IMG/VR virus record: IMGVR_UViG_3300027887_000463
Location: 9,371-73,370 of that record
DNA: 64,000 bases
Direction: 5' to 3' (one strand)
From: a virus
Shown here piece by piece: positions 46,314-64,000 of this stretch (position 1 is its first letter; each line of letters opens with the position of its first letter). A model generated the notes under the pieces. That model was not told the DNA's origin, did not search any database, and worked only from the letters and a program-made list of their open reading frames with translations. A program made the translations under genes and the position numbers.

Positions 46314-49300
46314 ATGGTAAATAAGCTAGATCCAGGTCTCCAGTCTAAGAACATCCAAGAAGCTATAGCAAATGTGATTAAATCACAGTTTCCTATTCAG
46401 GGTCGATATCAAACCTTGGAGCTTGTTGGGCCCCTAACAATTCAAGATGATTTAGATGATCAAGATTTTCCTGCTCAGCGTGAAGCCAAGCTCAGCGGAA
46501 GATCCTGGCAAGTTCCTGTGTACGGAACTTTCCGCCTCACTGATAATAAAACTGGAAATGTTATTGATGAAGCTAAGGATATAAAGGTCGCCAATATTCC
46601 TAAGCTTACGGATCGTTTCTCCATGCTCATCGAAGGTAATGAATATACTACGATGAATCAATTTCGTCTCAAGCCAGGAATTTATACTCGTAAAAAAGCT
46701 AACGACGAAATGGAGTCTCAATTTAATCTTGCCGTAGGTTATAACTTCAAAATGATGATGGATCCGGCAGATGGTATCTTCTATTTATATATTGGAAACC
46801 AGAAGTTCCACCTGTATACCCTGCTTCGTGCTTTTGGCGCCTCAGAAAACGAGATGATTAAATCCTGGGGCAATGCTCTGTTTGATAAAAACAAAAATGC
46901 TGGCCTCAACGAAGAGGGAAAAGAAATACCTCTGATGTGGGAGAAGTTGAAGAGACAAAAACTTCCATACGAAGAAGCTCTCAATGCTTTAAAGGATTAT
47001 TTCGATAAGACCAGAATTGATGTTGATACCACAGAAATTACCCTTGGTCGTGGAGTAGATCGTGTTACTCCAGATGCATTACTTCTTACTTCATCTAAAC
47101 TCTTACGTGTTCTACGTGGAGACGAGCCAGAAGATGAGCGCGATAGCCTAGTCTTCAAAGATCTCTATACCGTCGATGATCTTGTTCAAAAACATATCGA
47201 GAAGCGTGCTCCGAATATTCAAAAGAATCTTTTAGCCAGAACAGACCATAAGCAATCAATAAGAGAAATCATCTCACCAGATACTTATACCAAAGATATT
47301 AAGTCTTTTTTCACGCAAGGTGACTTAAGTAACCCATCCCCACAGACTAACCCCGTCGAGATGTTGGGCGAGTGGCGGAAGACTACTATCACAGGCACGG
47401 GTGGTATTCAGAGTTCACATGCCATCACCTTCAAAACTCGTGACATTCACCCAACACACTTGGGTTTTGTTGATCCTCTTAATACTCCAGAGTCGGGTAA
47501 AGTAGGTGTAACCCTTCCTCTAGCTATGCATGTTGAGAAACATGGAAAAGATATTAAGACACGATTGGTTACTCCAGAAGGAAAAGATATATTTGCCACA
47601 CCAGTAGAATTCTACAAAATGAAGGTCGGATTTCCAGATCAGCATGTTGAGGGTAAAGCTAAAGGCACCATGATTAAGGCGATGTATCGTGGGCAATCTG
47701 TGGTTCTTCCTGCCAAAGATATTGATGCATATATTCTTGACCCAACAAGTATGTTTGCTTGGACAACTAACCTTGTTCCATTCTTAGGACATAACTCGGG
47801 TAACCGCGCCCTCGTGGCCGCTAAAATGGTAACTCAAAGTGTCCCATTGAAAGCTCCAGAAACTCCTCTGGTAAAAGTTGTTGGACAAACCGGAGAAACG
47901 CTTGATTCAGTATTAGGCACGTTCTTAAAACCTAAGGTTCCTAAAGGATTTGGAACAGCCACTGTAATGAAGATCGATGATGACTACATTCATATAAGAA
48001 ATGAAAAGGGCGATCGTCATAAAGTTGGTTTATACAAAGACTTCCCGCTAAATCAAGAATCTTTTATTAATTCACGAGTTCTAGTTGATATCGGGCAGAA
48101 AGTCAAGGAGGGTGAACCTCTAGCGGATACTAACTTTTCAGACAAGAGTGGAAACTTTGCTCCTGGTGTAAATGTCAATGTTGCATATATGCCTTGGCAT
48201 GGATATAACTACGAGGACGGTATTGTTGTTACAGATTCTCTTTCCAAACGTTTTACATCAACTGTAATGTTGAAAAAGAATCTGCAGGTAGGGAAGGATA
48301 GTATTCTAGACCTAAAGAAATTTGTTTCATATTATCCTAAAGAATTGACGGTTGCCAACATTGAGAAAATGGATGATACAGGAGTAATAAAGGAGGGCGT
48401 TCGTATTGAGCCCGGTGAAACACTTATTGCTCATCTAAGCAAAATGGATCTAACGGATACACAAAAGATCCTAAAAAATATGAATCGTGTATTATCCAAT
48501 CCTTATCGTAATCAATCTCTTACCTGGGATGGAGAAAATCCAGGTGTTGTAACCCACGTTAGAAAAGTAGGAAATACTTATCAAATTCATGTGAAGGAAG
48601 AGCAACCACTCAAGGTTGGGGATAAGCTAGCCGCTCGGTATGGGGATAAAGGTATTGTTACGAAGATCATTTCAGATTCCGAAGCACCCCATACCAAAGA
48701 TGGAAATCGTATAGATATGATGGTTAATATTCATGGTGTAGTAGGCCGTATGAATATGGGGCAGCTACTTGAAGCAGCTGCTGGTCGAATCGCTATGAAG
48801 ACAGGCAAGCCTTTCTTAGTAAAGAACTTTGCTGACCGAGATTATCTATCTGATATTATGGCTGAAATGAAGAAGTTAAAACTTGAACCTAATGAGACGC
48901 TTCTGGATGGAGCAACGGGTAAGCCATTTGAAAAACCAGTCTTCTGGGGCAATAAGCATTATCTAAAGCTGATGCATGTAGTTGATCATAAGTACAAAGC
49001 TCGTGGAATCCCCGGATCTTATGATGCAAATGAGCAACCCGTCCATGGCGAGGTCGGAGGACAATCAGTTGATCCTCTACAGATGTATTCGTATCTTGCG
49101 CACGGTGCACGAGAGAATCTATATGAATTTACCGCGGTGAAAGGTCAGAAGAATGACGAGTATTGGCGTGCGCTACAGCTCGGTCTTCCGCCTCCTCCAC
49201 CCCAAAGAAACTTTGTCTTTGATAAGTTCATTAATTATATCAAGGCAGCTGGGGTTAATGTTGAGAAGAATGGAACTCGGTTTAAACTATTCCCAGCCAC

Positions 49301-52300
49301 CTCAGATGATATGTTAAAATGGTCTGCTGGCGAGCTTACAGATCCTGGTCATATGTTACGTGGAAAAGATCTTAGTGAAATTAAGGGTGGTTTATACGAC
49401 CCGAAATTAACGGGAGGGCTGCGAGGTACTAACTGGACCCACTTCAAACTAGAAGAGCCGATCCCCAATCCATTATATGAAAATGCAGTTAAGTCAATCT
49501 TAGGGCTAAATACACCTGCATTTGAACGTATCATCAATGAAGATGATAAAGATTCAAAGATGAAAGGTAACCAGCGTATAGCCAAAATGCTTTCGGATAT
49601 TGATATAGATGAAGAATTAGCCAAAGCTAAGGACGCCCTAAAGACAGCTGGACCTACACAAGTTAACACTTTGAACAAAAGGATTCGTTTCCTATCAGTG
49701 TTGAAGGAGCGTAATTTACGTCCTGAAAAAGCATATATGATGGAATTGATACCAGTACTTCCTCCAATTTATAGGCCAGTTTATCCATTACCTTCCGGAG
49801 ATACACAGAATTCTCCAATTAATTATCACTATCGTGACGTAGCTGTGTTGAATCAGTCTATAAAAGATATAAAAGCACAAGGTCATTTGATAGATGAGTT
49901 GGAACAGAACAGAAAGAATAGATCTGACTTATACAAATCTGTAAAAGCTTTAATGGGATTAGCAGAGCCCATCACCTTTACTACTCGTCAATATGAAGGA
50001 CTTCTTGGAACTCTTGCCGGAGATTCTCCAAAGCAAGGATTCATTCAGAACAAGTCCTGGTCGAAACGTCAAGATTTATCGGCTCGGTCCACGATCACAG
50101 TGGAACCTTCGCTCGGTATCGATCAAGTTGGATTGCCTGACGTCATGTTGAAAGATCTCTTTAAACCGTTTGTTATGAGAGAAATTGTACGCCAAGGTTA
50201 CAAACCAACTGAAGCCTTAGAACAGATAAAAACCTGGACTCCTGTAGCGGAACAAGCTCTGAATAATGCTATTAAACAGCGGCCCGTTATGCTTAACCGG
50301 GCACCATCTCTTCATAAGCATTCAGTACAGGCATTCTGGCCACAGAGATTTGAAGGACAAAGTATTCGTGTAAGTCCATTGACAGCAAAAGGATTTAACT
50401 TTGACTTTGATGGCGACACCATGTCAGTACACGTTCCTGTGTCTGAAAAAGCTGTGGAAGAAGCTAAAGGCATGCTGCCAACAAAGAATCTCTACAAAGC
50501 CGGCGATCGTCAGCATATGATTAATATTGAACAGGATTACCAGCTTGGTCTTTATTATTTATCACAGCTCGGAGCAGATACTGGAAAACGATTTTCTTCT
50601 ATTAGCAAGGCAATAAAGGAAGTTAAGGATCGTAATACTACCTTTACTTTAGATGGTAAAAAGATGAGTATCGGACAATGGGAAATTAACGACCCACTTC
50701 CTGATGCTTTGAAAGATTATACGCGACTCATGGATTCAAAAGCCGTCAAAGGTTTAGTAGATACATTATTTATGAAATATCCCGGTTATCTTGGAACTGT
50801 TATTGATACCTGGAAGGAGCTCGGAAGAAACTACGCAGTTCAAAGAGGTAGTACCGTGTCCATTACAGATATGGTCGTTGATCGCAGTTACAGGGATAAG
50901 ATCTTAAAAGATTATGAAGCTAAAATTAAGCCTGGTATGGATAAATATGAAGTCTCAAAGATCTATGGTGATGCTAAAGCTGAGATGGAAGAGGCTCAAG
51001 AAAAGCTTCTAAAGGGGAAGAACAACTTTTATGATATGTTACAAGCTGGAAGTACTTCGAAGAAGGGTCAGGTTACACAGATCCTTTCCATGCCGGGCAT
51101 TATGATGGACGTTCACGGAGAGCCAATTCCACATCCTGTAAAGAAATCTTGGTCAGAAGGTCTTGATACATTTGATTATTGGAACCAGTCTTATGGTGCC
51201 CGTAAAGGTGTTGTGGATCGTTCCGTTAATACTCAAGATTCTGGAGCTTTAAATAAAGAACTTCTATTTACTACTAAGAGTTTATTAGTTATTGAAGAAG
51301 ATTGTGGAACTCCAGAGGGTATTATATTAGATACTGATTCCAAAGAAGTTATGGATCGATTTCTTTCAAGTGATGTTCCGGGCGTTGGTAAGAGAAATGA
51401 TCTTGTTACAAATGAGCGTATGTTAAAAGCGAAAACAAAGAAAATAGAAAAACTTCCAGTACGATCATCTCTCACCTGTGAAGCTGAGGGCGGAGTTTGT
51501 CAGAAATGTTATGGCCTTATGGCAAACGGACAACTTGCTCGTATAGGAGAAAATGTAGGAGTTATTGACTCTGAGGCTGTTACTGAACGTTCTACTCAAT
51601 TACAAATGCAGACTTTCCATACTGGGGGTGTTGCAGGCGGAGGGGCAGCAGTAACATTAGGGTTCCCTAGATTGGAAGAGCTCTTGTATGTTCCACAGAA
51701 GATTCGAGACGCAGCGGTTCTTTCGCGAGAAGATGGTATTGTTACTCAAATTACAGAGAATCCAGCAGGAGGAAAAAATCTCTTCATTGGTCGTAGTGAG
51801 TACTATATTCCAAGAGAGAGACGTCTAGACGTTTCCGTCGGCTCTCGAGTAAAACGTGGTGATCGTTTAACAGATGGTTCCATTAAGCCACAGGAATTGT
51901 CGGAATTAAAAGAGCATCTTACAGCCCAGCAATATATAGCAGATGAAATCAATAAGATTTATGAGAATAAATTTGCAAGGAAAACTTTTGAAACCGTTTT
52001 ACGTGGTGTAGCAAATAATGCCGAAATAACAAATATTCCTGAAGAAGTAGAAGCAAGTGCTAATTTTATGCGGGGCGATACAGTACCGATAACTCGTGTA
52101 AAGAAATTAAATAGAGAGCTACTTGCTGAAGGAAAACCACAGATAGAATATAAGCCATTCTTTAAATCTATCTCTGTACTCCCATTACATAGTGACGATT
52201 GGCTAAGTAGATTAACAACAAACAGATTAAAACAAACTATCCAAGAGGCAGCTTCTATGGGTATGGAGAGCGATGTTAAGGGCACAGACCCGATGTCTGC

Positions 52301-52361
52301 TTATCTATATGGACTTGATTTTGGAAAAGATGTTGATCCAACAAAGAAGAAATTCTATTAA
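46314..52361 (+). CDS. Fused beta-beta' multisubunit RNA polymerase catalytic subunit (RpoB-RpoC-like single polypeptide, about 2015 aa)
   Basis: RpoB-like segments (FLGHNSGNRALVAAKMVTQSVPL; YMPWHGYNYEDGIVV; AARYGDKGIVTKI...RMNMGQLLE; GGQSVDPLQMYSYLAHGA) followed by an RpoC-like catalytic region (NRAPSLHKHSVQAFWP...FNFDFDGDTMSVHVPVS = NADFDGD motif). ATG 46314 with RBS preferred over the upstream TTG used in the ORF track. Confidence 0.8.
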   Translation: MVNKLDPGLQSKNIQEAIANVIKSQFPIQGRYQTLELVGPLTIQDDLDDQDFPAQREAKLSGRSWQVPVYGTFRLTDNKTGNVIDEAKDIKVANIPKLTDRFSMLIEGNEYTTMNQFRLKPGIYTRKKANDEMESQFNLAVGYNFKMMMDPADGIFYLYIGNQKFHLYTLLRAFGASENEMIKSWGNALFDKNKNAGLNEEGKEIPLMWEKLKRQKLPYEEALNALKDYFDKTRIDVDTTEITLGRGVDRVTPDALLLTSSKLLRVLRGDEPEDERDSLVFKDLYTVDDLVQKHIEKRAPNIQKNLLARTDHKQSIREIISPDTYTKDIKSFFTQGDLSNPSPQTNPVEMLGEWRKTTITGTGGIQSSHAITFKTRDIHPTHLGFVDPLNTPESGKVGVTLPLAMHVEKHGKDIKTRLVTPEGKDIFATPVEFYKMKVGFPDQHVEGKAKGTMIKAMYRGQSVVLPAKDIDAYILDPTSMFAWTTNLVPFLGHNSGNRALVAAKMVTQSVPLKAPETPLVKVVGQTGETLDSVLGTFLKPKVPKGFGTATVMKIDDDYIHIRNEKGDRHKVGLYKDFPLNQESFINSRVLVDIGQKVKEGEPLADTNFSDKSGNFAPGVNVNVAYMPWHGYNYEDGIVVTDSLSKRFTSTVMLKKNLQVGKDSILDLKKFVSYYPKELTVANIEKMDDTGVIKEGVRIEPGETLIAHLSKMDLTDTQKILKNMNRVLSNPYRNQSLTWDGENPGVVTHVRKVGNTYQIHVKEEQPLKVGDKLAARYGDKGIVTKIISDSEAPHTKDGNRIDMMVNIHGVVGRMNMGQLLEAAAGRIAMKTGKPFLVKNFADRDYLSDIMAEMKKLKLEPNETLLDGATGKPFEKPVFWGNKHYLKLMHVVDHKYKARGIPGSYDANEQPVHGEVGGQSVDPLQMYSYLAHGARENLYEFTAVKGQKNDEYWRALQLGLPPPPPQRNFVFDKFINYIKAAGVNVEKNGTRFKLFPATSDDMLKWSAGELTDPGHMLRGKDLSEIKGGLYDPKLTGGLRGTNWTHFKLEEPIPNPLYENAVKSILGLNTPAFERIINEDDKDSKMKGNQRIAKMLSDIDIDEELAKAKDALKTAGPTQVNTLNKRIRFLSVLKERNLRPEKAYMMELIPVLPPIYRPVYPLPSGDTQNSPINYHYRDVAVLNQSIKDIKAQGHLIDELEQNRKNRSDLYKSVKALMGLAEPITFTTRQYEGLLGTLAGDSPKQGFIQNKSWSKRQDLSARSTITVEPSLGIDQVGLPDVMLKDLFKPFVMREIVRQGYKPTEALEQIKTWTPVAEQALNNAIKQRPVMLNRAPSLHKHSVQAFWPQRFEGQSIRVSPLTAKGFNFDFDGDTMSVHVPVSEKAVEEAKGMLPTKNLYKAGDRQHMINIEQDYQLGLYYLSQLGADTGKRFSSISKAIKEVKDRNTTFTLDGKKMSIGQWEINDPLPDALKDYTRLMDSKAVKGLVDTLFMKYPGYLGTVIDTWKELGRNYAVQRGSTVSITDMVVDRSYRDKILKDYEAKIKPGMDKYEVSKIYGDAKAEMEEAQEKLLKGKNNFYDMLQAGSTSKKGQVTQILSMPGIMMDVHGEPIPHPVKKSWSEGLDTFDYWNQSYGARKGVVDRSVNTQDSGALNKELLFTTKSLLVIEEDCGTPEGIILDTDSKEVMDRFLSSDVPGVGKRNDLVTNERMLKAKTKKIEKLPVRSSLTCEAEGGVCQKCYGLMANGQLARIGENVGVIDSEAVTERSTQLQMQTFHTGGVAGGGAAVTLGFPRLEELLYVPQKIRDAAVLSREDGIVTQITENPAGGKNLFIGRSEYYIPRERRLDVSVGSRVKRGDRLTDGSIKPQELSELKEHLTAQQYIADEINKIYENKFARKTFETVLRGVANNAEITNIPEEVEASANFMRGDTVPITRVKKLNRELLAEGKPQIEYKPFFKSISVLPLHSDDWLSRLTTNRLKQTIQEAASMGMESDVKGTDPMSAYLYGLDFGKDVDPTKKKFY

Positions 52362-53732: not shown

Positions 53733-53791
53733 GTGAGAAAGCTCCTTTGTAAGATTTATGAAAAGCTATGGCGGGAATAGTCCCGCCATTA

Positions 53792-55960
53792 TTATTTGTT
53801 CACAACGACAACCTTTCCGTCGACCAGTTGAACTTCAAATGACCTTGCATCTGGATTCTCCAGAAGAAGATCTGCCATCTTTGATTCAACTTCCTTTTCA
53901 ATCAATCGACGCATTGGTCGAGCACCATATTCCGTAGAGTAGCCCTTTTCCAAGAACCAGTCTTCGGCTTCTGGTGTAAAGCTCATCGTAAACCGTTCGT
54001 TGATATCGTTTACCATAAGCTTCATGATCTGTCTCATACTGTCCTTATCGAGACGATTAAAGGTAACAATCTCGTCAAGGCGGTTGAGAAACTCCGGCTT
54101 GAAAAAGCTCTTCAACGCCGCCTTAAGATTCTTCTTCATATCATCATCTGCTGATGTTTCAGAGAATCCAAGGTTACGTTTTCCGGCGCTCTCAACACCG
54201 ATGTTTGACGTGATAATGATAATAGTATTTTTGAAACTGACAACCCTCCCTTGAGAATCAGTCAGAATACCATCATCAAAAATCTGAAGAAGCACATTGA
54301 ATACATCCGGATGCGCTTTCTCTATCTCATCAAACAATACAACTGAATACGGCTTCTTACGAACTTTCTCTGTAAGCTTTCCACCGCTATCATCGTATCC
54401 GATGTATCCCGGAGGAGCTCCGATAAGCGAAGAGATGGTGAACCGATCAAAGAATTCACTCATATCCAAACGAATCATTGCCTGTTCCGAATCAAACAGA
54501 TATCTAGCCAACTGTCTGGCCATCTCTGTTTTTCCAACCCCAGTAGGTCCAATGAAGAGGAAGGTGCTTGGGCGTTTATCGCTTTTGACACCGGTGCGTT
54601 TCCGTTTAATTGAGTTGGATACAGCTTGAATAGCATCTGGCTGTCCAACCAATCTTCCAGAAAGATCGGTATCAATGTGCTTTAACTTTTCCCGTTCCGA
54701 CTTATTGAGATTGGTGATAGGAACACCGGTTGTCTTCGAAACTACTCCTCGAATGATATCATTGTCGACCTGGACTGTGCCAGCGAGTTTTGCGACTGCC
54801 GCAGCTTCATCCAAAACGTCAATGGCTTTATCAGGAAGGAAACGATCCTGAATATAGCGTTCGGTGAGTTCAATAATGGTTGGAATAGCTTCCTGTGGAA
54901 TTTCCACCCCGTGATAAAGTTCATAGACATATTTGATTTGGCCGAGAATCTGTGCGGTTTCCTCCAGGGTTGGTTGCTCAATCATCACCTTCTGAAATCT
55001 CCGCTCCAACGCTCCATCCTTCTCGACATGCTTGCGAAATTCATTGGCAGTAGTTGCGCCAATGCATTTAATGTATCCACGTGATAGTGCCGGCTTGATG
55101 ATGTTTGCAGCATCACCAGTTCCCTCAGTACCTCCCGTACCCATAAGGGAATGCATCTCATCGATAAACAGAATGATATCAGGATTCTTCATCAGTTCCT
55201 TGATAATCATCTGCATCCTCTGCTCGAATTGTCCCCTGTACTGCGTTCCCGCAATAATGGAGTTGATGTCAAGTGAAAGGATTCTTTTGTTGAGAAGCAT
55301 TTTGGGAACATTACCCGCAGCGACGCGCATTGCCAGACCTTCGACAATAGCGGTCTTTCCCACGCCTGGCTCACCGATCAACGCAGGGTTGTTCTTCTTC
55401 CTGCGTGCTAGGATCTCGATGACACGTGAGATTTCGGATTCGCGTCCGATGACCGGATCTAACTTATTCTCCTGAGCCAGAATCGTCAGATCCATCGAAA
55501 AAGCATTTAGTGCCGGAGTGTTTTGTGAACTTGTCCGATCACTTGATACCTTTTTCTTTGGTTCTCCGACTTCAGTGTAGCCAACTTCATTGAGCATCTT
55601 GGACGCTACACTGTCTGGTGTACGATAGAGACTGTGAACTAAAGCATCTGCTTCTATTGTTCCGGTTATCGATATGAACTTGGCGAAGTTCAGAATATAA
55701 CGCATCGAATTCGAAACTTTCGGAAGAGGGTTCGTTACTGCAATATCCCTCTGTATTACACGGAATCGATCCGACAAGAGTGTACGAAGTTTACCAATGT
55801 TTGCCCCATTCTTGTTTAAAAGCGTAAGGCCTTCGTTATCACCTTGCTCCACGATTGCAAAAAGTAAGACTTCACTGGAAATTGTATCTTGGTTAAGCTC
55901 CGTCGCTTTCTTTCGAGCTAATCCAAAGATTTCCTCTGTCTTTGTTGAATACTGATTCAT
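53792..55960 (-). CDS. ClpA/ClpC-like two-ring AAA+ unfoldase (about 722 aa from MNQYSTK)
   Basis: N-terminal Clp_N repeat, D1 Walker A GEPGVGKTAIVEGLA, D2 Walker A GPTGVGKTEMARQLA, DRFLPDKAIDVLDEA; RBS AAAGGAG-N7-ATG at 55960. Confidence 0.85.
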   Translation of the reverse strand: MNQYSTKTEEIFGLARKKATELNQDTISSEVLLFAIVEQGDNEGLTLLNKNGANIGKLRTLLSDRFRVIQRDIAVTNPLPKVSNSMRYILNFAKFISITGTIEADALVHSLYRTPDSVASKMLNEVGYTEVGEPKKKVSSDRTSSQNTPALNAFSMDLTILAQENKLDPVIGRESEISRVIEILARRKKNNPALIGEPGVGKTAIVEGLAMRVAAGNVPKMLLNKRILSLDINSIIAGTQYRGQFEQRMQMIIKELMKNPDIILFIDEMHSLMGTGGTEGTGDAANIIKPALSRGYIKCIGATTANEFRKHVEKDGALERRFQKVMIEQPTLEETAQILGQIKYVYELYHGVEIPQEAIPTIIELTERYIQDRFLPDKAIDVLDEAAAVAKLAGTVQVDNDIIRGVVSKTTGVPITNLNKSEREKLKHIDTDLSGRLVGQPDAIQAVSNSIKRKRTGVKSDKRPSTFLFIGPTGVGKTEMARQLARYLFDSEQAMIRLDMSEFFDRFTISSLIGAPPGYIGYDDSGGKLTEKVRKKPYSVVLFDEIEKAHPDVFNVLLQIFDDGILTDSQGRVVSFKNTIIIITSNIGVESAGKRNLGFSETSADDDMKKNLKAALKSFFKPEFLNRLDEIVTFNRLDKDSMRQIMKLMVNDINERFTMSFTPEAEDWFLEKGYSTEYGARPMRRLIEKEVESKMADLLLENPDARSFEVQLVDGKVVVVNK

Positions 55961-56374
55961 AGTACTCCTTTTGTGAATAAAATTTGGAAGGCTGCGATCC
56001 GCAATCCTTGATAACATACCGTCCGATTATTAGGCCATCGGGGCCTATTATCATTCCTACTATTCCATACTGCTACCTGATCACGAAACGTAACCCTGGA
56101 ATGGGAAATGCATTCCGCGATTGGGATGACAACCTTCCCTTGAAAGGGATAACCTGGCCAGGACTAGAGCTTCTCCACAGCCCCTTTGCTAGGGTAGGGC
56201 CGTGTGTCTGAAAAGTACAGATACCCCTCCCCAGGTCCTTTGCCTGGGCGTTAGGGCTCATCAAAAGTCGAAGCGACTTTCTATAGCTTGATAGCTTCTT
56301 CAAACCAAATTGGCCGAAGAATCCTCATGCGCCCACCTCTACTCGTAGCCAAGCTCCCTAATTACTTCTTATCC
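55961..56374 (-). promoter_or_regulatory. About 410-nt untranslated, GC-elevated, hairpin-rich region upstream of the clpA-like gene (candidate structured leader or sRNA)
   Basis: No convincing ORF (two overlapping antisense 75-aa ORFs only); multiple G/C hairpins such as CCCAGG-TCCTTTGC-CTGGG and GCCC-TTTGCTAGGGTA-GGGC. Confidence 0.3.
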
Positions 56375-57226
56375 TCAAGCTTCTTCAGAATCTTCATCCG
56401 CTCTTTTGTTGCGCCCGAGTCTTTTCCCAGTTTTCCGTCCAGACGATTCAGTCGGTCTGAAAGGGTCAACTTCTCGTACAATTCCTGGCGGACCTTCGCT
56501 TCTTCCTGCTTCTGTTTCCGGCTTTTCATATGATATTACCTCGACTTGATTTCCGTCTAGTTTAACAACTTGTTTTGTGAATTGAAGGCAGTCGATATCC
56601 CAATTGGAACCTTTTTGTTTTATCTTTGTGACCGGTGTATGGCCAAAGATCTGGGTTAATCCTTCCACGGGATTGAAGTCAACAGCAAAGTCAGACCAAA
56701 ATATACCTGCGTTTTGATCCACTCCCCCACGACTCATTCCAATGTTATATACTAACCCATCATCTACAGATCTCCAGGATTCTTGTAAAAAGAATTCAAT
56801 CAAATCAATGAAATCTTCTCTCTCATAGAGATCGGGGGTAGTTTCGAATGCCTCTCGAAGAAGCTGTGAATTAAGCCCTGCGTGTGTGATGAGTACCTTA
56901 TTTTCCTTATCCAGAATAAAAGGTTTCATCAGTTTCCACATACGGCTTTTTAATGCTATGATTTTTGCGTCGAAACTTGATGCATATCCCGAACACCGCA
57001 TACGCCTCATGAGATACGATAGCTCATGATTACCAAAAACACATTCAGTGGTTCCTCGTTCAATATCATTTAGAACCAACTCTAGAAGCTTGAACTGTTC
57101 TGTTCGTGAAAAGTAAAAGGAATCGAGCAGATCTCCAGTTAAAATCAGCTTCTCTTTTGTTGAACTCTTTACTTCGTGATAGAAGTTGATCTCACCATGG
57201 AGATCTCCGATTACGATTGCTTTCAT
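56375..57226 (-). CDS. Ser/Thr protein phosphatase, PPP family (lambda-phosphatase-like) with charged C-terminal tail
   Basis: GDLHG, GDLLD, GNHE metallophosphoesterase motifs; K/R/E-rich C-terminal 40 aa. Confidence 0.75.
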   Translation of the reverse strand: MKAIVIGDLHGEINFYHEVKSSTKEKLILTGDLLDSFYFSRTEQFKLLELVLNDIERGTTECVFGNHELSYLMRRMRCSGYASSFDAKIIALKSRMWKLMKPFILDKENKVLITHAGLNSQLLREAFETTPDLYEREDFIDLIEFFLQESWRSVDDGLVYNIGMSRGGVDQNAGIFWSDFAVDFNPVEGLTQIFGHTPVTKIKQKGSNWDIDCLQFTKQVVKLDGNQVEVISYEKPETEAGRSEGPPGIVREVDPFRPTESSGRKTGKRLGRNKRADEDSEEA

Positions 57227-57711
57227 CGATTAAAATAATCCTCGTTGTGCCACTCTGGTGGTTTTCTGTTTGTCCATCTTTTGTCTATGTGCTTTTTTCC
57301 ATAAAAATAATACTTTCTATAAGCCCAAATGGTGTTGCCAAATTTATATTCATCTGGCATACATTTTGGAGGAGAGGAAAATCCTATAATCGGTATATCT
57401 TTTGGAAGGCGCTGAAGAAGCCACATAGGCTCGCTTGTTTTATGATGCTTACCATATCTGTGGTTGTATTCGGATAATAGCCACTGCCCATACTCCAGCA
57501 ACCACTGGTAATTTTGGCCAGAAGTTCGCGCCCATATGGCACACGGATGATTTTTATGTGTCGGTTGGTACATCCCCCGTTTCCACGAACCCAGTTCAGA
57601 ATGTGCAGTGCTGAGCAGCTGTGCAGTCTCTAAAATCATCTTTACTACATGCTTATCACACAGCATTGCTGCACATGTTTTAGGATCTCGTGCAAGGTAG
57701 AAAATGTTCAT
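57223..57711 (-). CDS. Hypothetical protein (162 aa); weak resemblance to DenV-type pyrimidine-dimer glycosylase N-terminus
   Basis: MNIFYLARD...LCDKHVVKMILE versus the T4 endoV [23 protein letters not shown] pattern, and a C-terminal RKPPEW; not secure. Confidence 0.2.
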   Translation of the reverse strand: MNIFYLARDPKTCAAMLCDKHVVKMILETAQLLSTAHSELGSWKRGMYQPTHKNHPCAIWARTSGQNYQWLLEYGQWLLSEYNHRYGKHHKTSEPMWLLQRLPKDIPIIGFSSPPKCMPDEYKFGNTIWAYRKYYFYGKKHIDKRWTNRKPPEWHNEDYFNR

Positions 57712-58044: not shown

Positions 58045-58066
58045 AAGGGCACGGTTAGGTGCCCTT
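58045..58066 (-). terminator. Hairpin plus T-run overlapping the stop codon of the RNA-repair gene (possible partial terminator/attenuator)
   Basis: Minus strand AAGGGCAC-CUAACC-GUGCCCUU-UUAUUU; stop codon lies in the loop. Confidence 0.35.
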
Positions 58067-60223
58067 CTCCTTGTAATACATATTTCTCAATGTGATGATA
58101 TCTCGTGATAGCTCTTCTTCAGTTCTGGTTTTGAGCCAGGCATAGAAGTAGTTGGCTTCGGGCGTAACCAATCCCGAGAGATTCACCTGTCGTCTTGCAC
58201 GAACAGCATCCTTCACTACACGCATATGTTTCCAGAAGTTGTAGTAAGGGAGCTTAAGCTTCATCATAAAGCCATTGGAATCCTCAAAGACAAATCCCTC
58301 GATATCCGAGGTAGTTGCCGTTTCACATTCCTTATAGAATTGAAGAAGCTCTTCCTTCGAGTTCAGAGTCTTATACAATTGCTTCGAGCGATGTGGCATA
58401 TTCAGTGAATGGGCAAATGCCAGCATCTCCTGATATGGCAACTTCTCGTAGTCAAGTGTTCTCCGCACTGCATCCAGAAGAACTAATCCCTGTCTGTCGG
58501 GATATGCAATGATATGAGGATCGGTATCTTGATCAACTACTTCGAAGACAAGAGTGACGTTGTGTCCCTTGAGAATTGCTTTGAGATAATCCGGATCTAC
58601 GTTTGTGGTTAATGCCCACACACGCTTGAAGATGTCCGGATAGATTCCCTCAACAGAACTCTTGGAAAGGAAGAGAACCTGATCGGAAGCAGTATCATAA
58701 CCGACCATACCCAGGAATCCATTATACTTCTCGTACACATGGACAGGATATTGAAGGTTAACCGTTTCAATCTTAGTCTCATCTCTTTCGTTCACATTGA
58801 AAAACTTATTATATGAACGAGCCACAATTTCATTTGTCACCGTATTGACGAACAGTCCTCTGGCTTTTACTGTCATTCCATCCCAAATCTTCTTGTAGAA
58901 CGCACCACGGTTGAAGTTAAACGAGGAGATATCTCCGAACTTGCGCTCATTGATGTGTCTGCTCTTCCTTAAATCCTCCACGAACGAGGAAGGACCGAGA
59001 GTGGTTTCCACTTTTATATTTTTTGGACGAAATACAGTATTCGGAATCTCCCATGTCTTGATCTCCAAAGAATCACGATAGAGAGTAACAGCCCGAAGAT
59101 TTCCTCCGAACTCAATGTTACCCTGCAGATTATAATACTTTGGGTTGATCTTTATAGGCGATTCCGTAACGTTTCTATGGCCAGATATCTGGATGGCATC
59201 CGGCGGAGAATTCTTCTCCCACGATTCAGCAACCTCCAGCATATCTTCATAGCGTCCCACACCTTTGATAAATTGTTCGGTAGCAATTGTGATGAGGTCT
59301 TCAGGGAGCTTAGAGATGCCTCCGTGGGTTACCAGAACGAGCTGATTTCCCAAACGGAAATATGCAACCTGAGCAAACTTCCTACACAACTGCCGTACGG
59401 ATCCCTTATCCAAAGCTGCGGACTCGAGTTCTCTTTTGGTTTGGAAAAGGAATTCATTGGAACGAATCTTTTCCTCTTCCTGGTTGGCCCAGTATCTCAA
59501 CCACCGCTCGTGATTCCCCTCCAGAAGAAGTATATTAGGCTTTTCATAATTCTCGATAAGCCAACGTACCACCTCGGTATTCTGAATCCCACGATCGATA
59601 AAATCACCAACAAAGATGTAATAGTGATTTTCGTGATAGCCAACTGCATCGAACCACACTTTCAGCGGTTCATAACATCCGTGAATATCTCCGATAATGT
59701 GCACCTGTTCATATTCAAATGCAAGCGGTGCATAATCAAAGACGCCCATATAGTCAGCCGGCTTGACAACCTGGACATAACCAGGAACCGGTTGACTCTT
59801 TAGTCGAGCTTCGATATTATCGAGCACAAATTCCGGAACCCACTTATATTCCGGACGGGTCTTATTCTGAAGTTTGCATTGTTCCAGAGGAACATCGGAG
59901 AAGTCGATACAATAGATACGGTATCGATACTCTCCTGCCAACTTCTTATACTTGGCAAAATCGCTGGCCTTGGAGTGAGTAGCATCAATGAACACCAGTT
60001 CTCCGCGTTCCATGCGAGTTTCCAACATTTCGAATAGAAGTCCCCAAACCTTTCGGTCATTCTCCGGGCTAATCGCGTACACTCCCTTAGGAGTAAGTAC
60101 CGGCGCCTGGAGTTGGAGACGAATGTCATCAGCGCACAATGTGTAAGGGCGCAGGCCTTCCTGTTCGAGCCAGGTAGACTTTCCGCATCCGACATTACCG
60201 CGGAGAAGATAGAGGTGTCTCAT
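58055..60223 (-). CDS. Trifunctional RNA-repair enzyme: polynucleotide kinase, metallophosphoesterase-type phosphatase and ligase-like nucleotidyltransferase (bacterial Pnkp-like), 722 aa
   Basis: N-terminal P-loop GNVGCGKST; central calcineurin-like motifs HIIGDIHGC, VGDFIDRG, GNHE; C-terminal nucleotidyltransferase motif I EKYNGFLGM (KxNG). Confidence 0.7.
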   Translation of the reverse strand: MRHLYLLRGNVGCGKSTWLEQEGLRPYTLCADDIRLQLQAPVLTPKGVYAISPENDRKVWGLLFEMLETRMERGELVFIDATHSKASDFAKYKKLAGEYRYRIYCIDFSDVPLEQCKLQNKTRPEYKWVPEFVLDNIEARLKSQPVPGYVQVVKPADYMGVFDYAPLAFEYEQVHIIGDIHGCYEPLKVWFDAVGYHENHYYIFVGDFIDRGIQNTEVVRWLIENYEKPNILLLEGNHERWLRYWANQEEEKIRSNEFLFQTKRELESAALDKGSVRQLCRKFAQVAYFRLGNQLVLVTHGGISKLPEDLITIATEQFIKGVGRYEDMLEVAESWEKNSPPDAIQISGHRNVTESPIKINPKYYNLQGNIEFGGNLRAVTLYRDSLEIKTWEIPNTVFRPKNIKVETTLGPSSFVEDLRKSRHINERKFGDISSFNFNRGAFYKKIWDGMTVKARGLFVNTVTNEIVARSYNKFFNVNERDETKIETVNLQYPVHVYEKYNGFLGMVGYDTASDQVLFLSKSSVEGIYPDIFKRVWALTTNVDPDYLKAILKGHNVTLVFEVVDQDTDPHIIAYPDRQGLVLLDAVRRTLDYEKLPYQEMLAFAHSLNMPHRSKQLYKTLNSKEELLQFYKECETATTSDIEGFVFEDSNGFMMKLKLPYYNFWKHMRVVKDAVRARRQVNLSGLVTPEANYFYAWLKTRTEEELSRDIITLRNMYYKEKGT

Positions 60224-60690
60224 TATGACTTCCTTAACATAGTTAAGATTTGATTTCCTTCTCGTTTTGGAGTATCCATTGCGAAATGGGTTAGTTCTGC
60301 TTTTATTTTTTCGAGTAATTCAAATCCCTGTTCGGGACGAGTTATTTCTCGACCATGAAAGCGAACTATCAAACGAATAGGATGTCCCTTTTCGAGTAGT
60401 TCATTGATATGCCGAGCTTTTGTTTGAAGATCATGGTCGGCAATATTAATATTGAATCGAAACTCTTTTAGATCTGGCGCAGGTTTCGTCTTATGCGCTT
60501 TTTTCTGTTGATACTGAAACTTCTCAAAGTCTTGAATCTTGCAGACACCGCGCCCAACTTCTACAAGATCCAAACTCCTTGTATGTGCTAATTTTATAGC
60601 CTCGGTCGTAGCTAGAGTTCCGAGATTATTTCCGTTCTCGTCAATAACAAGAACGGGAGTGTCCGTGATCTGATTATTTACACGGTTCAA
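60223..60690 (-). CDS. infC: Translation initiation factor IF-3 homologue with non-AUG (TTG) start; stop overlaps the ATG of the RNA-repair gene (TAATG)
   Basis: VLVIDENGNNLGTLATTEAIKLAHTRSLDLVEV...CKIQDFEKFQYQQKKA...LIVRFHGREI matches IF3 N- and C-domain signatures; no in-frame ATG between the upstream TAG and the conserved N-terminus; GGAGA nine nt before TTG. Confidence 0.7.
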   Translation of the reverse strand: MNRVNNQITDTPVLVIDENGNNLGTLATTEAIKLAHTRSLDLVEVGRGVCKIQDFEKFQYQQKKAHKTKPAPDLKEFRFNINIADHDLQTKARHINELLEKGHPIRLIVRFHGREITRPEQGFELLEKIKAELTHFAMDTPKREGNQILTMLRKS

Positions 60691-61051
60691 GTTCGATCTT
60701 CTCCAATGATTGGATATTTGTGTATGCGTAAAAGGTACCTAGTTTGGTACCCGTATCTTTGAAACATAGTTTAATCTTTACACTATGCGCAGATTCATAG
60801 AACGGCATTGTATACCCCAGTAACTCTAGCTGAGTTCCCGCAGGTAGAAGCAGTTGTCCGTTTCTAGGTATTCCGTATTGACCTCTGTGTACATTGGGAT
60901 CTGGAGTGAACATATTTCCAGCAAAAGTACTCACTCGCTTCTGTGCGTAACTTGTGGAGAGTTCTATTGAGACCAACTGGTCTTTTATTACAATAAACTC
61001 TCGCTTACCCTCAAAAAAATTGAATCTCATTTTAAAGACCAATCTAACCAT
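60674..61051 (-). CDS. Hypothetical protein (125 aa)
   Basis: ORF overlapping the infC-like start. Confidence 0.4.
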   Translation of the reverse strand: MVRLVFKMRFNFFEGKREFIVIKDQLVSIELSTSYAQKRVSTFAGNMFTPDPNVHRGQYGIPRNGQLLLPAGTQLELLGYTMPFYESAHSVKIKLCFKDTGTKLGTFYAYTNIQSLEKIELEPCK

Positions 61052-62025
61052 TTCGGATTACGTACATACCAGTTGACTGTTTTGCTGAGACATTCTTCAA
61101 ATTCCATTGGAATCTTCCAGCCCATATTTTCCATCTTGGTTCCGTCCAGAGCATAGCGTAAGTCATGTCCTGGCCTCGATGAATGAAAGTCAACTAGTTC
61201 GTATTTTAGTTCTTTCCCAAGGATGACGGCAATATCATGTGCCATATCCAAGTTACTAACCTCTTTTTCTCCTACAATATTAAACTTATCACCATTGTCT
61301 GTATGAGAGTTCAGAAGAAAGTGAATAGCTGATGCAACATTTCTTGCATGGATATAAAATCGTGAGCCAGATTTTGTTCGTTCTGGATTAGAGTGTATTT
61401 CAATAGTTCGTCCAGCAAGAATATCAATAATACATTTGGGTATGAATTTTTCTGGGTGTTGTCGTTCTCCAAAAACATTCATTGTGTGGGTGATGATGAT
61501 GGGAAGTTTGTAGGTATTTTCATACGCTATACAAAGCTCTTCTCCGCCCGCTTTAGTAGCTGCATAAGGATTTTTTGCATTGTAGCGATCCCATTCCTTA
61601 AAAGCTATACCTTCGGGTGCCGGTCCAAAAACCTCATCTGTAGAAAAGTAAATCATTTTCTCTAGATGCCGTAGATTTCGAGCAAACTCTAAAATCTCTA
61701 AGGTCCCCACTACGTTTGAATAAACAAAGCGTCGTGGTTCGGTTATTGAGTTATCTACGTGTGTCTCTGCACCCAGATGTAGAATGTAATTTACATCGCC
61801 GATTTCATTGAGTAGCCCCTCATTTATGGGCTTCGTAAAATCCGCAGTAAAGGTAGTTACACGCTTATCATCATACACGTTAATATCGCGTAACCGATTG
61901 AATCCATGTGAAGCATATGTTAATTTATCGAATACGACTATGCTCCAGTCAGTATTTTTCAGAAAATGTTCTACGATGTGGTGCCCGATGAAACCAGCAC
62001 CACCCGTAATTAAGATTATTGGCAT
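61027..62025 (-). CDS. rmlB: dTDP-glucose 4,6-dehydratase (RmlB-like short-chain dehydrogenase)
   Basis: ILITGGAGFIGHHIV, DKLTYASH (RmlB KLTYAGN), YAATKAGGE (YxxxK), full-length collinearity with RmlB. Confidence 0.8.
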   Translation of the reverse strand: MPIILITGGAGFIGHHIVEHFLKNTDWSIVVFDKLTYASHGFNRLRDINVYDDKRVTTFTADFTKPINEGLLNEIGDVNYILHLGAETHVDNSITEPRRFVYSNVVGTLEILEFARNLRHLEKMIYFSTDEVFGPAPEGIAFKEWDRYNAKNPYAATKAGGEELCIAYENTYKLPIIITHTMNVFGERQHPEKFIPKCIIDILAGRTIEIHSNPERTKSGSRFYIHARNVASAIHFLLNSHTDNGDKFNIVGEKEVSNLDMAHDIAVILGKELKYELVDFHSSRPGHDLRYALDGTKMENMGWKIPMEFEECLSKTVNWYVRNPKWLDWSLK

Positions 62026-62404: not shown

Positions 62405-62437
62405 AGTAAAAAAAATGAGGGGGAGTTTATCTCCCCC
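62405..62437 (-). terminator. Rho-independent terminator after the SPFH-like gene
   Basis: Minus strand GGGGGAG-AUAAA-CUCCCCC followed by TCATTTTTTTT. Confidence 0.6.
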
Positions 62438-62443
62438 ACATTA

Positions 62444-63640
62444 CTACTTCTTTGGAATTGAAAGGTCGAGTGCCAAATCCTTGGCGGTCTTGACTGAGAG
62501 CATATCAATCAAAGCCGTTGCGGAATTATAGCTACCCTTACCAGCACCGCTTCCCTCAAAAATCACATCAGGAACCCACTTCTGTTTGCCAATGTTTTCG
62601 GCAAAAGCAGTCATGACCGCCTGATAGGTTTCCAACTTCTGGGTCAAGGCACCATCAGCAATAATGATCTTACGCTTGTATTCAGCATCAGCTTCAGCTT
62701 CGAGAATTCTCTTCTGCTTATACTGACCGGCTGTTTTGGTTTCAAGCGTAGCAACTTCCAGCTTCTGCTGGGCTTCTGTTACCATCTTGGCCTTGATTAC
62801 TTCCTGTTCCCATTTGGCTTTTGCGGCTTCTGCACGACCATTCTGTTCCGCGGTAATCGCTTGCTGTTCAGCTTCGCGAGCCTTTGCGGAGGCAGTTTGA
62901 ATCTGCATAATTGCCTGTTGCTGAGCCTGGATCTGCTTCTCAACGTTTTCGTCGTAGCCAACGTTATTGATCGAAAGGTTGAAAGTCTTTACTCCAAAAA
63001 CTGCAAGAGGAGATTCATCCTGCCGTTCAAAGGTGCCATCCTTACCTTTCAATACGTCAACAACCGTGAGAGTACGTGGAGAACCAGATAGAGGATCCTT
63101 ATCTTGAACCTGATATGAACGGGTCTTATAAACCCCATTCTCGATCTGGTCTTCGATAAAACGGATTAACTCATTCCGGCGTTCAGCATAAGACTCTTTT
63201 GACGACATAAGAGGGCCAGTCATATAGACTGATTTCTCTACGATCGTTCGTACGAGTTGCTGCTCAATGGCCTGCTGGCTTCCATACTTGGTATGAAGCA
63301 TAACCAAATGCTGTTCATCCACAGGCATTTCCCACGCAATTGATCCAGAGACACTGCCATGACCACCATCATTGAATCGAACTGAGATGGCCTGATTCAT
63401 TTCTGTTCCCTGATCATCTTTTTCTGAGAACCAGAATTGGGATCGCTTTTGATACTTGGTGACTTTGCCGAAACCCTGCCACTTGAAATTTCCAGGAGTC
63501 ATGTGCCAGGTGAGATCTCCCGAAAGAGACTGAACCACCATGATCTCGTCGGCGTCGTTACTTTCGAAAATGTTGAAACTTGCAAAGATCAGAACGATCG
63601 CAAGAATGGCAACGGCTCCGAGGCCGAAGATCTTGCGACC
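62444..63640 (-). CDS. SPFH/band-7 flotillin-like membrane protein, N-terminally truncated at the compositional junction
   Basis: TM helix [19 protein letters not shown], then an SPFH-like domain and a long Ala/Glu/Gln/Lys coiled coil; no start codon before the TM (the ORF runs open into antisense high-GC DNA); codon usage more GC-rich than the other phage genes. Confidence 0.5.
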
Positions 63641-63644
63641 CGCG

Positions 63645-64000
63645 TCGAGCTCGGCGGGCGGCGGTTCCTGCGCCGTTCCGGCCGCGGCGCGTTCGTCACA
63701 CGCCTTGCCGACGGCCGGCCGCTCGGCGTGATCAACGCGATGGGCCGGGTCTTCATGCCGCCGGTCGACAATCCGTTCGAGGCGGTCGCCGCCGCCGTCG
63801 ATCGCCTGTCGCGCGAATCCCGCGTCATCGTCGTCGACATGCACGCGGAAGCCACGGCCGAGAAGATCGCGATGGGCTGGCACCTCGATGGCCGCGCGGC
63901 CGCGCTGGTCGGCACGCACACCCACGTGCAGACCGCCGACGCCCGCATCCTTCCAGGCGGCACGGCGTACATCACCGATGTCGGCATGACCGGGCCGCAC
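63645..64000 (+). CDS. ymdB: Internal fragment of a YmdB-family metallophosphoesterase (2',3'-cyclic-nucleotide phosphodiesterase) from a high-GC bacterium; partial at both ends
   Basis: [33 protein letters not shown]...[57 protein letters not shown] collinear with B. subtilis YmdB residues ~115-215; GC ~68%. Confidence 0.65.

Follow-up and report, generated by a model that had tools for sequence, protein, structure and literature searches.

A 722-amino-acid open reading frame in the window, the whole 64,000-nucleotide stretch of DNA analyzed here, probably encodes an intact, self-contained RNA repair enzyme that would both heal and seal broken ends, belongs to a widespread phage family, and is paired with the adjacent IF3 gene in position only. 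Judged by its sequence, the enzyme is a mosaic in which a healing cassette of the bacterial Pnkp type is joined to a sealing domain of the fungal Trl1 (Rnl6) type; this anatomy, found in an abundant phage protein family that also occurs in Staphylococcus Kayvirus, is the point worth keeping. Domain searches, fold comparisons and alignments establish what the domains are, how their folds are related, and that all catalytic residues are conserved; the family also has putative counterparts of the residues behind the 2'-phosphate dependence of Trl1. At stake are a 2'-PO4 intermediate in phage RNA repair, the extension of the Rnl6 clade beyond eukaryotes, and the host nucleases against which such an enzyme would defend.

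Domain composition and phage family

The repair gene and the IF3 gene lie exactly where the earlier note had placed them (Table 1). Its claim that a P-loop kinase, a calcineurin-type phosphatase, and a KxNG ligase share one polypeptide is borne out by the domain search that it had proposed: AAA_33 (residues 4-141, E 6.6e-15), Metallophos (residues 174-354, E 3.1e-16), and RNA_lig_T4_1 (residues 453-661, E 2.2e-41) all match above the Pfam gathering thresholds, and the motifs GCGKS (residue 12), GDIHG (178), GDFIDRG (206), GNHE (236), and KYNG (499) are present. The catalytic residues of kinase, phosphatase, and ligase are invariant in 121 homologs with at least 44% identity to the 722-aa protein, the set to which all conservation counts given here refer.

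Table 1. Features of the repair gene and its surroundings in the window.
Feature	Position	Strand	Remarks
Trifunctional RNA repair gene (kinase, phosphatase, ligase)	58055..60223	-	Complete 722-aa ORF, ATG start, stop codon within range
5'-OH polynucleotide kinase domain, N-terminal	59774..60223	-	About residues 1-150; P-loop G12-C-G-K15-S16, D32-x-x-R35, D80, R123
Binuclear metallophosphoesterase domain, central (predicted 2',3'-cyclic phosphodiesterase/phosphatase)	59081..59710	-	About residues 172-381
ATP-dependent RNA ligase module, Trl1/Rnl6 type, C-terminal	58058..58957	-	About residues 423-722
Phage IF3 (infC-like) gene	60223..60690	-	155 aa, TTG start, GGAG at 60704-60701 upstream
TAATG junction, IF3 stop/ligase start	60221..60225	-	Read from sequence; 1-nt overlap
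ORF of unknown function, 105 aa	57719..58036	-	Immediately downstream of ligase gene
Second Metallophos protein gene	56375..57226	-	Pfam scan
ClpA-like ATPase gene	53792..56017	-	Pfam scan
Terminator-like hairpin upstream of co-directional block holding IF3 and ligase	62419..62437	-	Consensus scan, pattern match only
Terminator-like hairpin just past ClpA-like gene, likely block end	53768..53789	-	Consensus scan, pattern match only

The protein has more than 2591 database homologs, the closest of them 74% identical, and the 120 metagenomic homologs among the matches listed all carry the same three Pfam domains; a nucleotide search with the whole region against the deposited phage collection gave no match. 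The match to PHROG 8238 ("RNA ligase") is collinear and full-length (residues 1-720 against profile positions 1-733 of 737, E 2.8e-210); 153 phage records match the query, 113 of them at full length (at least 80% of the query), and in deposited genomes of Kayvirus, SPbeta-like, and other phages these homologs are labelled "RNA ligase" or "tRNA ligase." PHROG 8238 proteins from Staphylococcus Kayvirus, Twort (ORF008), the Bacillus SPbeta-like phages Goe11, Goe12, and SPbetaL2-3-8, and Brochothrix phage A9 (gp147) align with the window protein collinearly over their full length of 713-760 aa at 36-45% identity; in contrast to these members, the window protein comes from an uncultured large-phage clade, and its lineage is the only one seen here in which the gene directly follows IF3. 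The ORF is a metagenomic addition to a phage family already catalogued as PHROG 8238, for no member of which biochemical work was found in the literature searched. The kinase-phosphatase-ligase architecture itself is probably catalogued in a 2016 paper by Burroughs and Aravind in NAR (44:8525).

Healing domains

The N-terminal domain matches the polynucleotide kinases of PHROG 505 (E 2.1e-13), and all of its PDB matches with E<0.001 are Clostridium thermocellum Pnk structures (4gp6, 4gp7, 4jst, 4mde); K15, D32, R35, and R123 are invariant in the 121 homologs, and S16 is likewise conserved. The same PDB search returned two weak methyltransferase matches (E ~0.3). In the central domain, the metal and phosphate ligands D179, H181, D207, R211, N237, H238, H300, and H349 form the same active-site set as in bacterial Pnkp (CthPnkp), the RNA-specific phosphatase of which is the top structural match. 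The domain order of kinase, metallophosphoesterase, and ligase is also that of CthPnkp in the Pnkp/Hen1 system, and the closest solved structures of both healing domains come from this enzyme; the NCBIfam model for bacterial Pnkp (TIGR04075) is 851 positions long, compared with 722 aa here, which makes the earlier estimate of an enzyme about 150 aa shorter than CthPnkp roughly right.

The CthPnkp-type esterase cuts the cyclic phosphate at P-O3' to leave a 2'-phosphate, and either H189D or D392N alone turns CthPnkp into a pure diesterase (PMC1920235; PMC2190708). His181, the counterpart of the CthPnkp His189 that is required for monoesterase activity, is kept in 119 of the 121 homologs. A PDB search for the Asp392 counterpart, made with the C-terminal half of the phosphatase domain, returned spurious matches only; the alignment to the lambda phosphatase profile is unreliable across the equivalent stretch. 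At position 367 of the protein, 114 of the 121 homologs have Glu and the window protein has Gln; E371 does not vary.

Ligase module

The earlier note had allowed for a search that would find no nucleotidyltransferase motif besides KxNG; motifs I (K499-Y-N501-G), III (E561), IV (E642), and V (K655/K657) are all present. The core is preceded by an Rnl1-like N-terminal subdomain and followed by an all-helical C-domain (about residues 662-722), and across this entire module, helical C-domain included, the top match by sequence profile and by structure is fungal Trl1. The ligase domains of the Rnl6 clade (Chaetomium Trl1, 6N0T/6N0V; Candida glabrata, 9QW7) share the KxNG form of motif I, and the features of this clade, an Rnl1-like adenylyltransferase core with a distinctive all-helical C-domain, are present here. 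In sequence alignment, Trl1 His227/Arg334/Arg337 correspond to H570/K665/R668 of the window protein, with Lys in place of the first Arg; all 121 homologs have H570 and R668, and 120 of them have K665. In CthTrl1, this triad imposes the requirement for a 2'-PO4 (PMC6379707; PMC11404444). The presence of a Trl1-type His/Lys/Arg triad suggests that the end chemistry may differ from a simple T4-like route.

Full-length Trl1 runs from ligase through kinase to a 2H cyclic phosphodiesterase, whereas the window protein runs from kinase through metallophosphoesterase to ligase, lacks a 2H domain in the Pfam search, and carries a 3'-healing domain of unrelated fold. PMC3592404 describes the T4 3'-phosphatase as a DxDxT (HAD) enzyme and the T4 counter to PrrC as two proteins, Pnkp and Rnl1; here the phosphatase is a binuclear metallophosphoesterase and all three domains reside in a single polypeptide. 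The C-domain of T4 Rnl1, which confers tRNA specificity, is left unmatched, since only profile positions 60-273 are covered, and the score against TIGR02308 (T4 Rnl1, RnlA) is 29.8 against a cutoff of 242, below equivalog level. The Rnl4-type C-terminal ligase and Hen1-binding module that characterize bacterial Pnkp are likewise not those of the window protein. The earlier assignment to a bacterial Pnkp rather than a T4 architecture stands for the domain order, the kinase, and the phosphatase, but not for the ligase, which is of the Trl1 (Rnl6) type.

Predicted repair pathway and alternative readings

Homology predicts all of the enzyme activities. In RNA cut by a HEPN-type or anticodon nuclease, for which PrrC, RloC, or Cas13 would be candidates, the cyclic phosphate would be opened and then removed by the central, Mn2+-dependent metallophosphoesterase, and the 5'-OH would be phosphorylated by the N-terminal P-loop kinase; the C-terminal ligase would be adenylylated at Lys499, pass the AMP to the 5'-phosphate, and join the ends. 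The window contains no tRNA genes, and any physiological substrate named for the enzyme would be a guess.

The structures of PP1/PP2A/calcineurin and ApaH also score well against the phosphatase domain, and PHROG 246 ("NinI-like Ser/Thr phosphatase") matches the 722-aa protein as well, so that kinase and phosphatase might be thought to act on proteins or nucleotides, in lambda-phosphatase or ApaH-like signaling, without any part in RNA repair. Such a role is very unlikely for domains that share a polypeptide with a complete RNA ligase whose catalytic residues are intact, when the kinase is itself a P-loop domain of the polynucleotide kinase type and the phosphatase resembles the RNA-specific CthPnkp enzyme above all others. 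Still less probable, to the point of being hardly credible, is membership in the bacterial Pnkp/Hen1 system, in which the ligase would need a Hen1 partner and the junction would be 2'-O-methylated; the shared domain order and the Pnkp-like healing domains speak for it, but with a sealing domain of the fungal Trl1 type a Hen1 partner should be unnecessary. Neither Hen1 nor Tpt1 was found among the window and flanking ORFs scanned (Pfam; methyltransferase domain absent).

A more serious alternative, possible although we consider it doubtful, is that the ligase, like fungal Trl1, can seal a 3'-OH end only if it bears a 2'-phosphate; the esterase would then begin as a cyclic phosphodiesterase yielding 3'-OH,2'-PO4 ends, and either a Tpt1/KptA-type enzyme or the phosphomonoesterase of the enzyme itself would later take the 2'-PO4 off the junction. 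Conservation of the entire Rnl6 module with its clade-defining C-domain, the KxNG motif, the nearly invariant triad, and the 2'-phosphate produced by the CthPnkp-type esterase, which single substitutions reduce to a pure diesterase, are all consistent with this yeast-like route. On the other side stand the retention of the monoesterase histidine, the Lys that replaces the first Arg of the triad, the lack of a Tpt1 gene among the window ORFs scanned, and the distribution of the two genes among phages: KptA/Tpt1 occurs in 98 phage records (Erwinia, Klebsiella, Clostridioides, and others) and the ligase in 153 (Staphylococcus, Lactobacillus, Streptomyces, SPbeta-like Bacillus phages, and others), and the near-disjoint genus lists make a 2'-PO4 requirement less likely. 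With comparable reserve, the phage family could be placed within the Rnl6 (Trl1) ligase clade, as a branch from viruses of prokaryotes that has kept a putative 2'-phosphate-recognition site (His570/Lys665/Arg668). All members of this clade described to date are, to our knowledge, fungal, and we know of no functional explanation for the widespread bacterial Tpt1/KptA enzymes. If sealing did need a 2'-PO4, phages would perform a eukaryote-style RNA repair that leaves a 2'-phosphorylated junction behind; this would provide a natural substrate for bacterial Tpt1/KptA enzymes and would suggest that the ligase domain of eukaryotic tRNA ligases has a phage-related origin.

The IF3 gene and its junction with the repair gene

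The gene upstream of the repair gene encodes a two-domain IF3, with IF3_N at 68 bits and IF3_C at 74.5 bits (both above the curated Pfam cutoffs), 119.6 bits against NCBIfam TIGR00168 infC (cutoff 60), and a match to PHROG 9787. Its homologs form a clade of their own, with proteins of 154-160 aa at 46-99% identity; a scan of IMG/VR with the IF3 protein gave no match. In Escherichia coli, infC belongs to the thrS-infC-rpmI-rplT operon and has an autoregulatory AUU start codon; here, this cellular context is absent and the neighbors are phage genes, and the start codon is TTG in the window and ATG or TTG in the relatives, not AUU. Phage-encoded IF3 was previously reported by Iyer et al. 2021 (PMC7824862). 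The jumbo phage Atu_ph07 likewise carries a two-domain IF3 (AUZ94813.1; PHROG 9787, which spans jumbo and huge phages), yet its identity to the window protein is just 28%.

The TAATG overlap that the earlier note reported between the two genes is read directly in the sequence: the IF3 stop codon TAA (60225-60223) shares one nucleotide with the ligase ATG (60223-60221) on the minus strand (...AAGGAAGTCATAATGAGA...), a Shine-Dalgarno-like AAGGAAG precedes the ATG at 60235-60229, and the 74%-identical relative L003 has the identical junction. Tight co-directional packing and the overlap of start and stop codons make it very probable that IF3 and the ligase are co-expressed. A promoter scan was uninformative, with 23 sites found against 21 expected.

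Five contigs of the clade have the ligase next after IF3, namely the window and four relatives with ligase identities of 74% (L003), 64% (P0003), 54% (L018), and 52% (P0006); in four others (L014, L015, P0136, P0137), IF3 occurs without the ligase and abuts or overlaps a different next gene. In two of these, L014 and L015, that gene is homologous to the 105-aa ORF that follows the ligase here (BLASTP: L015_111, E 1.6e-21; L014_95, E 1.2e-9; in the ligase-bearing L003, L003_94, E 6e-43), so that the ligase gene behaves as a clean insertion, either present or absent. The gene conserved at this slot is IF3; the ligase is accessory and found only in some members of the clade.

In the reading of the earlier note, IF3, the repair enzyme, the ClpA-like ATPase, and the second phosphatase would together make up a dedicated, translationally coupled module for translation maintenance and counter-defense. 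The overlap is real, the ClpA-like and second phosphatase genes do lie on the same strand as the repair gene within a block bracketed by terminator-like hairpins, IF3 and ligase remain neighbors in five members of the clade, at ligase identities as low as 52%, and a Clp ATPase also adjoins IF3 in the unrelated Agrobacterium phage Atu_ph07. Such a module is nevertheless improbable. Four clade members keep IF3 without the ligase; the ligase is widespread, and no adjacent IF3 was seen in the genomes inspected, SPbeta-like Goe11, the P0007 contig, and Kayvirus Metroid; Atu_ph07 appears to carry both genes, with no ligase annotated within about 9 kb on either side of IF3. The block has mixed contents, among them a sugar dehydratase, a DenV-type glycosylase, and ORFs of unknown function, and the DenV-like and second Metallophos genes come and go among relatives. 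Neighboring genes of the window often overlap, at 17 of 43 same-strand junctions (8 of the 17 by 1 or 4 nt). Because ligase-free contigs exist, IF3 overlaps other genes there, and overlaps are frequent, the pairing of IF3 and ligase looks positional and not like an obligate functional module; at the same time, the order persists to 52% ligase identity although the downstream neighbors have changed, and co-expression may therefore carry a selective advantage.

Elsewhere in the window, a reverse transcriptase gene lies at 40479..41363; a diversity-generating element was considered for it and rejected, as no template/variable repeat pair was found. The assignment of the window to a phage rests on its metagenomic relatives, an IMG/VR entry, and a baseplate match.

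The predicted RNA repair enzyme

The 722-aa protein carries three Pfam domains, AAA_33 (residues 4-141), Metallophos (174-354) and RNA_lig_T4_1 (453-661), and these domain searches bear out the trifunctional kinase, phosphatase and ligase proposed in an earlier note. In the kinase domain, the P-loop (G12-C-G-K15-S16), D32-x-x-R35 and R123 are each invariant in 121 homologues; matches to PDB sequences at E<0.001 were kinase domain structures of the bacterial Pnkp of Clostridium thermocellum (CthPnkp), besides which two weak methyltransferase matches appeared (E about 0.3). The phosphatase ligands (D179, H181, D207, R211, N237, H238, H300, H349) agree in pattern and spacing with the CthPnkp site D187/H189/D233/R237/N263/H264/H323/H376 (PMC3675462). 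Collinear alignment with the NCBIfam Pnkp model is limited to residues 6-381, which identifies the healing half of the enzyme (kinase and phosphatase) as Pnkp-like.

The ligase motifs I (K499-Y-N-G), III (E561), IV (E642) and V (K655 and K657) are invariant in the 121 homologues, with the one exception of K655, conserved in 120. When a profile of 21 ligase-domain sequences was compared with the PDB, ligase domains of the fungal tRNA ligase Trl1 aligned with essentially the full length of the module, C-terminal helices included (9qw7, E 3.9e-30; 6n0v, E 2.6e-20), whereas the match to T4 Rnl1 was restricted to the nucleotidyltransferase core (E 6e-13) and the Pnkp ligase was not matched at all. 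This pattern assigns the predicted ligase half to the Rnl6 (Trl1) type defined by Banerjee et al. (PMC6379707). The "bacterial Pnkp" architecture of the earlier note thus describes the healing half but not the ligase: the enzyme shares the kinase and phosphatase types of CthPnkp, yet carries a different ligase module, which is why it is shorter than CthPnkp; it is not truncated.

The protein matches the phage "RNA ligase" family PHROG 8238 end to end (E 2.8e-210). A tblastn search of deposited phages matched 153 records, and in 113 the match covers the full length (36-45% identity); they come from Staphylococcus Kayvirus and Twort-like, SPbeta-like Bacillus, Lactobacillus, Streptomyces, Fusobacterium, Brochothrix and Agrobacterium phages, where the homologues are annotated as "RNA ligase", "tRNA ligase" or hypothetical. 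The protein database holds more than 2591 homologues, with the same three domains in all 120 that were listed. No paper characterising a PHROG 8238 member was found in the literature searched, which covered reviews of this architecture incompletely. Domain identity, fold and residue conservation are established; the enzyme adds a new member to a phage family that is catalogued but biochemically unstudied.

Proposed function and a possible 2'-phosphate route

The enzyme would heal 2',3'-cyclic-phosphate and 5'-OH RNA ends, and could seal them through a Lys499-AMP intermediate, probably with no need for a Hen1-type partner; by analogy with the countering of PrrC by T4 Pnkp and Rnl1, it may counteract host metal-independent RNases that attack tRNA or other translation RNAs. 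Iyer et al. have already noted phage IF3 genes, along with phage RNA repair in this broad sense, calcineurin-like phosphatases among it (PMC7824862).

A yeast-like route, in which the Trl1-type ligase would depend on a 2'-PO4 for sealing, is chemically plausible although we consider it rather unlikely. Trl1 needs the 2'-PO4, a requirement enforced by His227/Arg334/Arg337 (PMC6379707, PMC11404444); these residues align with H570, K665 and R668 of the phage enzyme, a putative site that is invariant or nearly so in the 121 homologues. CthPnkp converts the cyclic phosphate by ring opening into a 2'-phosphate that it then removes, and its H189D and D392N mutants halt at the 2'-phosphate, yielding a product that feeds yeast ligase but not T4 Rnl1 (PMC1920235, PMC2190708). 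The chemical plausibility of the route follows from this conserved triad and from these mutants; however, the counterpart of CthPnkp His189 is kept in 119 of 121 homologues, and the genera of phages bearing the enzyme and of those bearing the RNA 2'-phosphotransferase KptA/Tpt1 are almost disjoint; both observations speak against the route. KptA/Tpt1 occurs in 98 deposited phage genomes, mostly of Erwinia, Klebsiella, Serratia, Dickeya and Clostridioides phages, with scant overlap with phages having the Trl1-like ligase. The interest of the enzyme is moderate, and stems from the Pnkp/Trl1 mosaic and the conserved putative 2'-phosphate site, not from the association with IF3.

The IF3-ligase gene pair

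Both ORFs lie exactly where the earlier note placed them, and direct reading of the minus-strand sequence across the junction (AAGGAAGTCATAATG) confirmed the TAATG overlap of 1 nt, a single base being common to the IF3 stop TAA (60225-60223) and the ligase start ATG (60223-60221); a Shine-Dalgarno-like AAGGAAG precedes this ATG. The 155-aa protein has the Pfam domains IF3_N and IF3_C and passes the NCBIfam infC equivalog (119.6 bits, cutoff 60). The IF3/ligase pair is real and intact.

Features of the window
Feature	Positions	Strand	Remarks
Giant ORF	17566-27291	+	3241 aa; several internal direct-repeat families (70-150 nt, 69-78% identity)
Long non-coding gaps	39714-40478, 41364-41709, 42043-42662		unusually long; surround reverse transcriptase
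Reverse transcriptase	40479-41363	-	294 aa; Pfam RVT_1 E 4e-23, PHROG 2825 E 1e-61
MoxR-type AAA ATPase, then VWA-domain protein	42663-45380	-	bpMoxR E 1e-46
RNA polymerase beta/beta' fusion	46266-52361	+	one 2031-aa ORF; Rpb2 domains 3, 6 fused to Rpb1 domains 1, 2, 4, 5
Terminator-like hairpin	53789..53768		one end of ~8.6-kb block
ClpA-like ATPase	53792-56017	-	near IF3 in clade
DenV-type pyrimidine-dimer glycosylase	57223-57711	-	Pyr_excise E 3e-10
RNA repair enzyme gene	58055..60223	-	722-aa ORF, ATG start
IF3 gene	60223..60690	-	155-aa ORF, TTG start
dTDP-glucose/GDP-mannose 4,6-dehydratase-like enzyme	61027-62025	-	E 3e-47
Terminator-like hairpin	62437..62419		other end of ~8.6-kb block
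GC break	63600-64000		~45% to ~71% abruptly over final 400 bases

The ligase directly follows IF3 in five contigs of the clade: the window, L003 (ligase 74% identical, TAATG junction as in the window), the P0003 contig (64%, 4-nt overlap), L018 (54%, 1-nt spacer) and the P0006 contig (52%, 4-nt overlap). IF3 of the same clade occurs without the ligase in four, namely L014 and L015, which have the clade synteny (IF3 66% and 62% identical, respectively), and the short contigs P0136 and P0137 (49% and 46%). In L014 and L015, IF3 is joined straight to a homologue of the 105-aa ORF located downstream of the window's ligase, overlapping it as ATGA in L014 and abutting it as TAAATG in L015; within this fixed slot the ligase gene is therefore either cleanly present or cleanly absent.

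Outside the clade, IF3 did not stand beside the ligase in any of three contexts inspected. Phage IF3 genes were found in 70 deposited records, among them that of Agrobacterium phage Atu_ph07, whose genus is also in the ligase match list; no annotated ligase lies within ~9 kb on either side of its IF3. Co-expression of IF3 and the ligase is likely; still, 17 of the 43 same-strand junctions in the window overlap, and together with the four ligase-free contigs and the three outside contexts this leaves the dedicated counter-defence and translation-maintenance module of the earlier note unsupported. The coupling is positional.

Autoregulation of infC in E. coli rests on an AUU start codon. The IF3 genes of the window, L003, L014, L015 and L018 start with TTG or ATG after GGAG and do not use AUU.

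Gene block and genome context

The hairpin-bracketed block is a mixed auxiliary gene set that also includes the sugar dehydratase, the DenV-type glycosylase, a second metallophosphoesterase and the ClpA-like ATPase. The glycosylase and dehydratase-like genes are co-directional with the IF3/ligase pair; of the clade relatives, some have the glycosylase gene and some lack it. In Atu_ph07, an unrelated jumbo phage, a Clp-family ATPase directly adjoins IF3 (L019, 244-2066), and the ligase of the P0006 contig is followed by a gene for a ClpP protease; an association of IF3 with Clp proteins may recur among large phages.

A search of deposited phages with the window nucleotides returned no close relative. 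The window encodes a baseplate wedge homologue, and its gene block is also present on metagenomic contigs, among them a 104-kb IMG/VR viral genome; common hallmarks of the clade are a ~2014-2031-aa RNA polymerase beta/beta' fusion ORF, the ClpA-like ATPase and a DUF7873 gene. In related contigs extending that far, the fusion is kept, where complete, at ~2012-2015 aa.

No template/variable repeat pair was found for the reverse transcriptase, which may be of the DGR, a retron-like or another type. The MoxR-type ATPase and VWA-domain genes form a MoxR-VWA pair in a phage genome, and the giant ORF presumably encodes a repetitive fibre or surface protein. The terminal GC break falls inside the 5' end of an SPFH/Band_7 gene, whose copy in a related contig is 427 aa, and resembles either an assembly chimera or foreign DNA at the window end.
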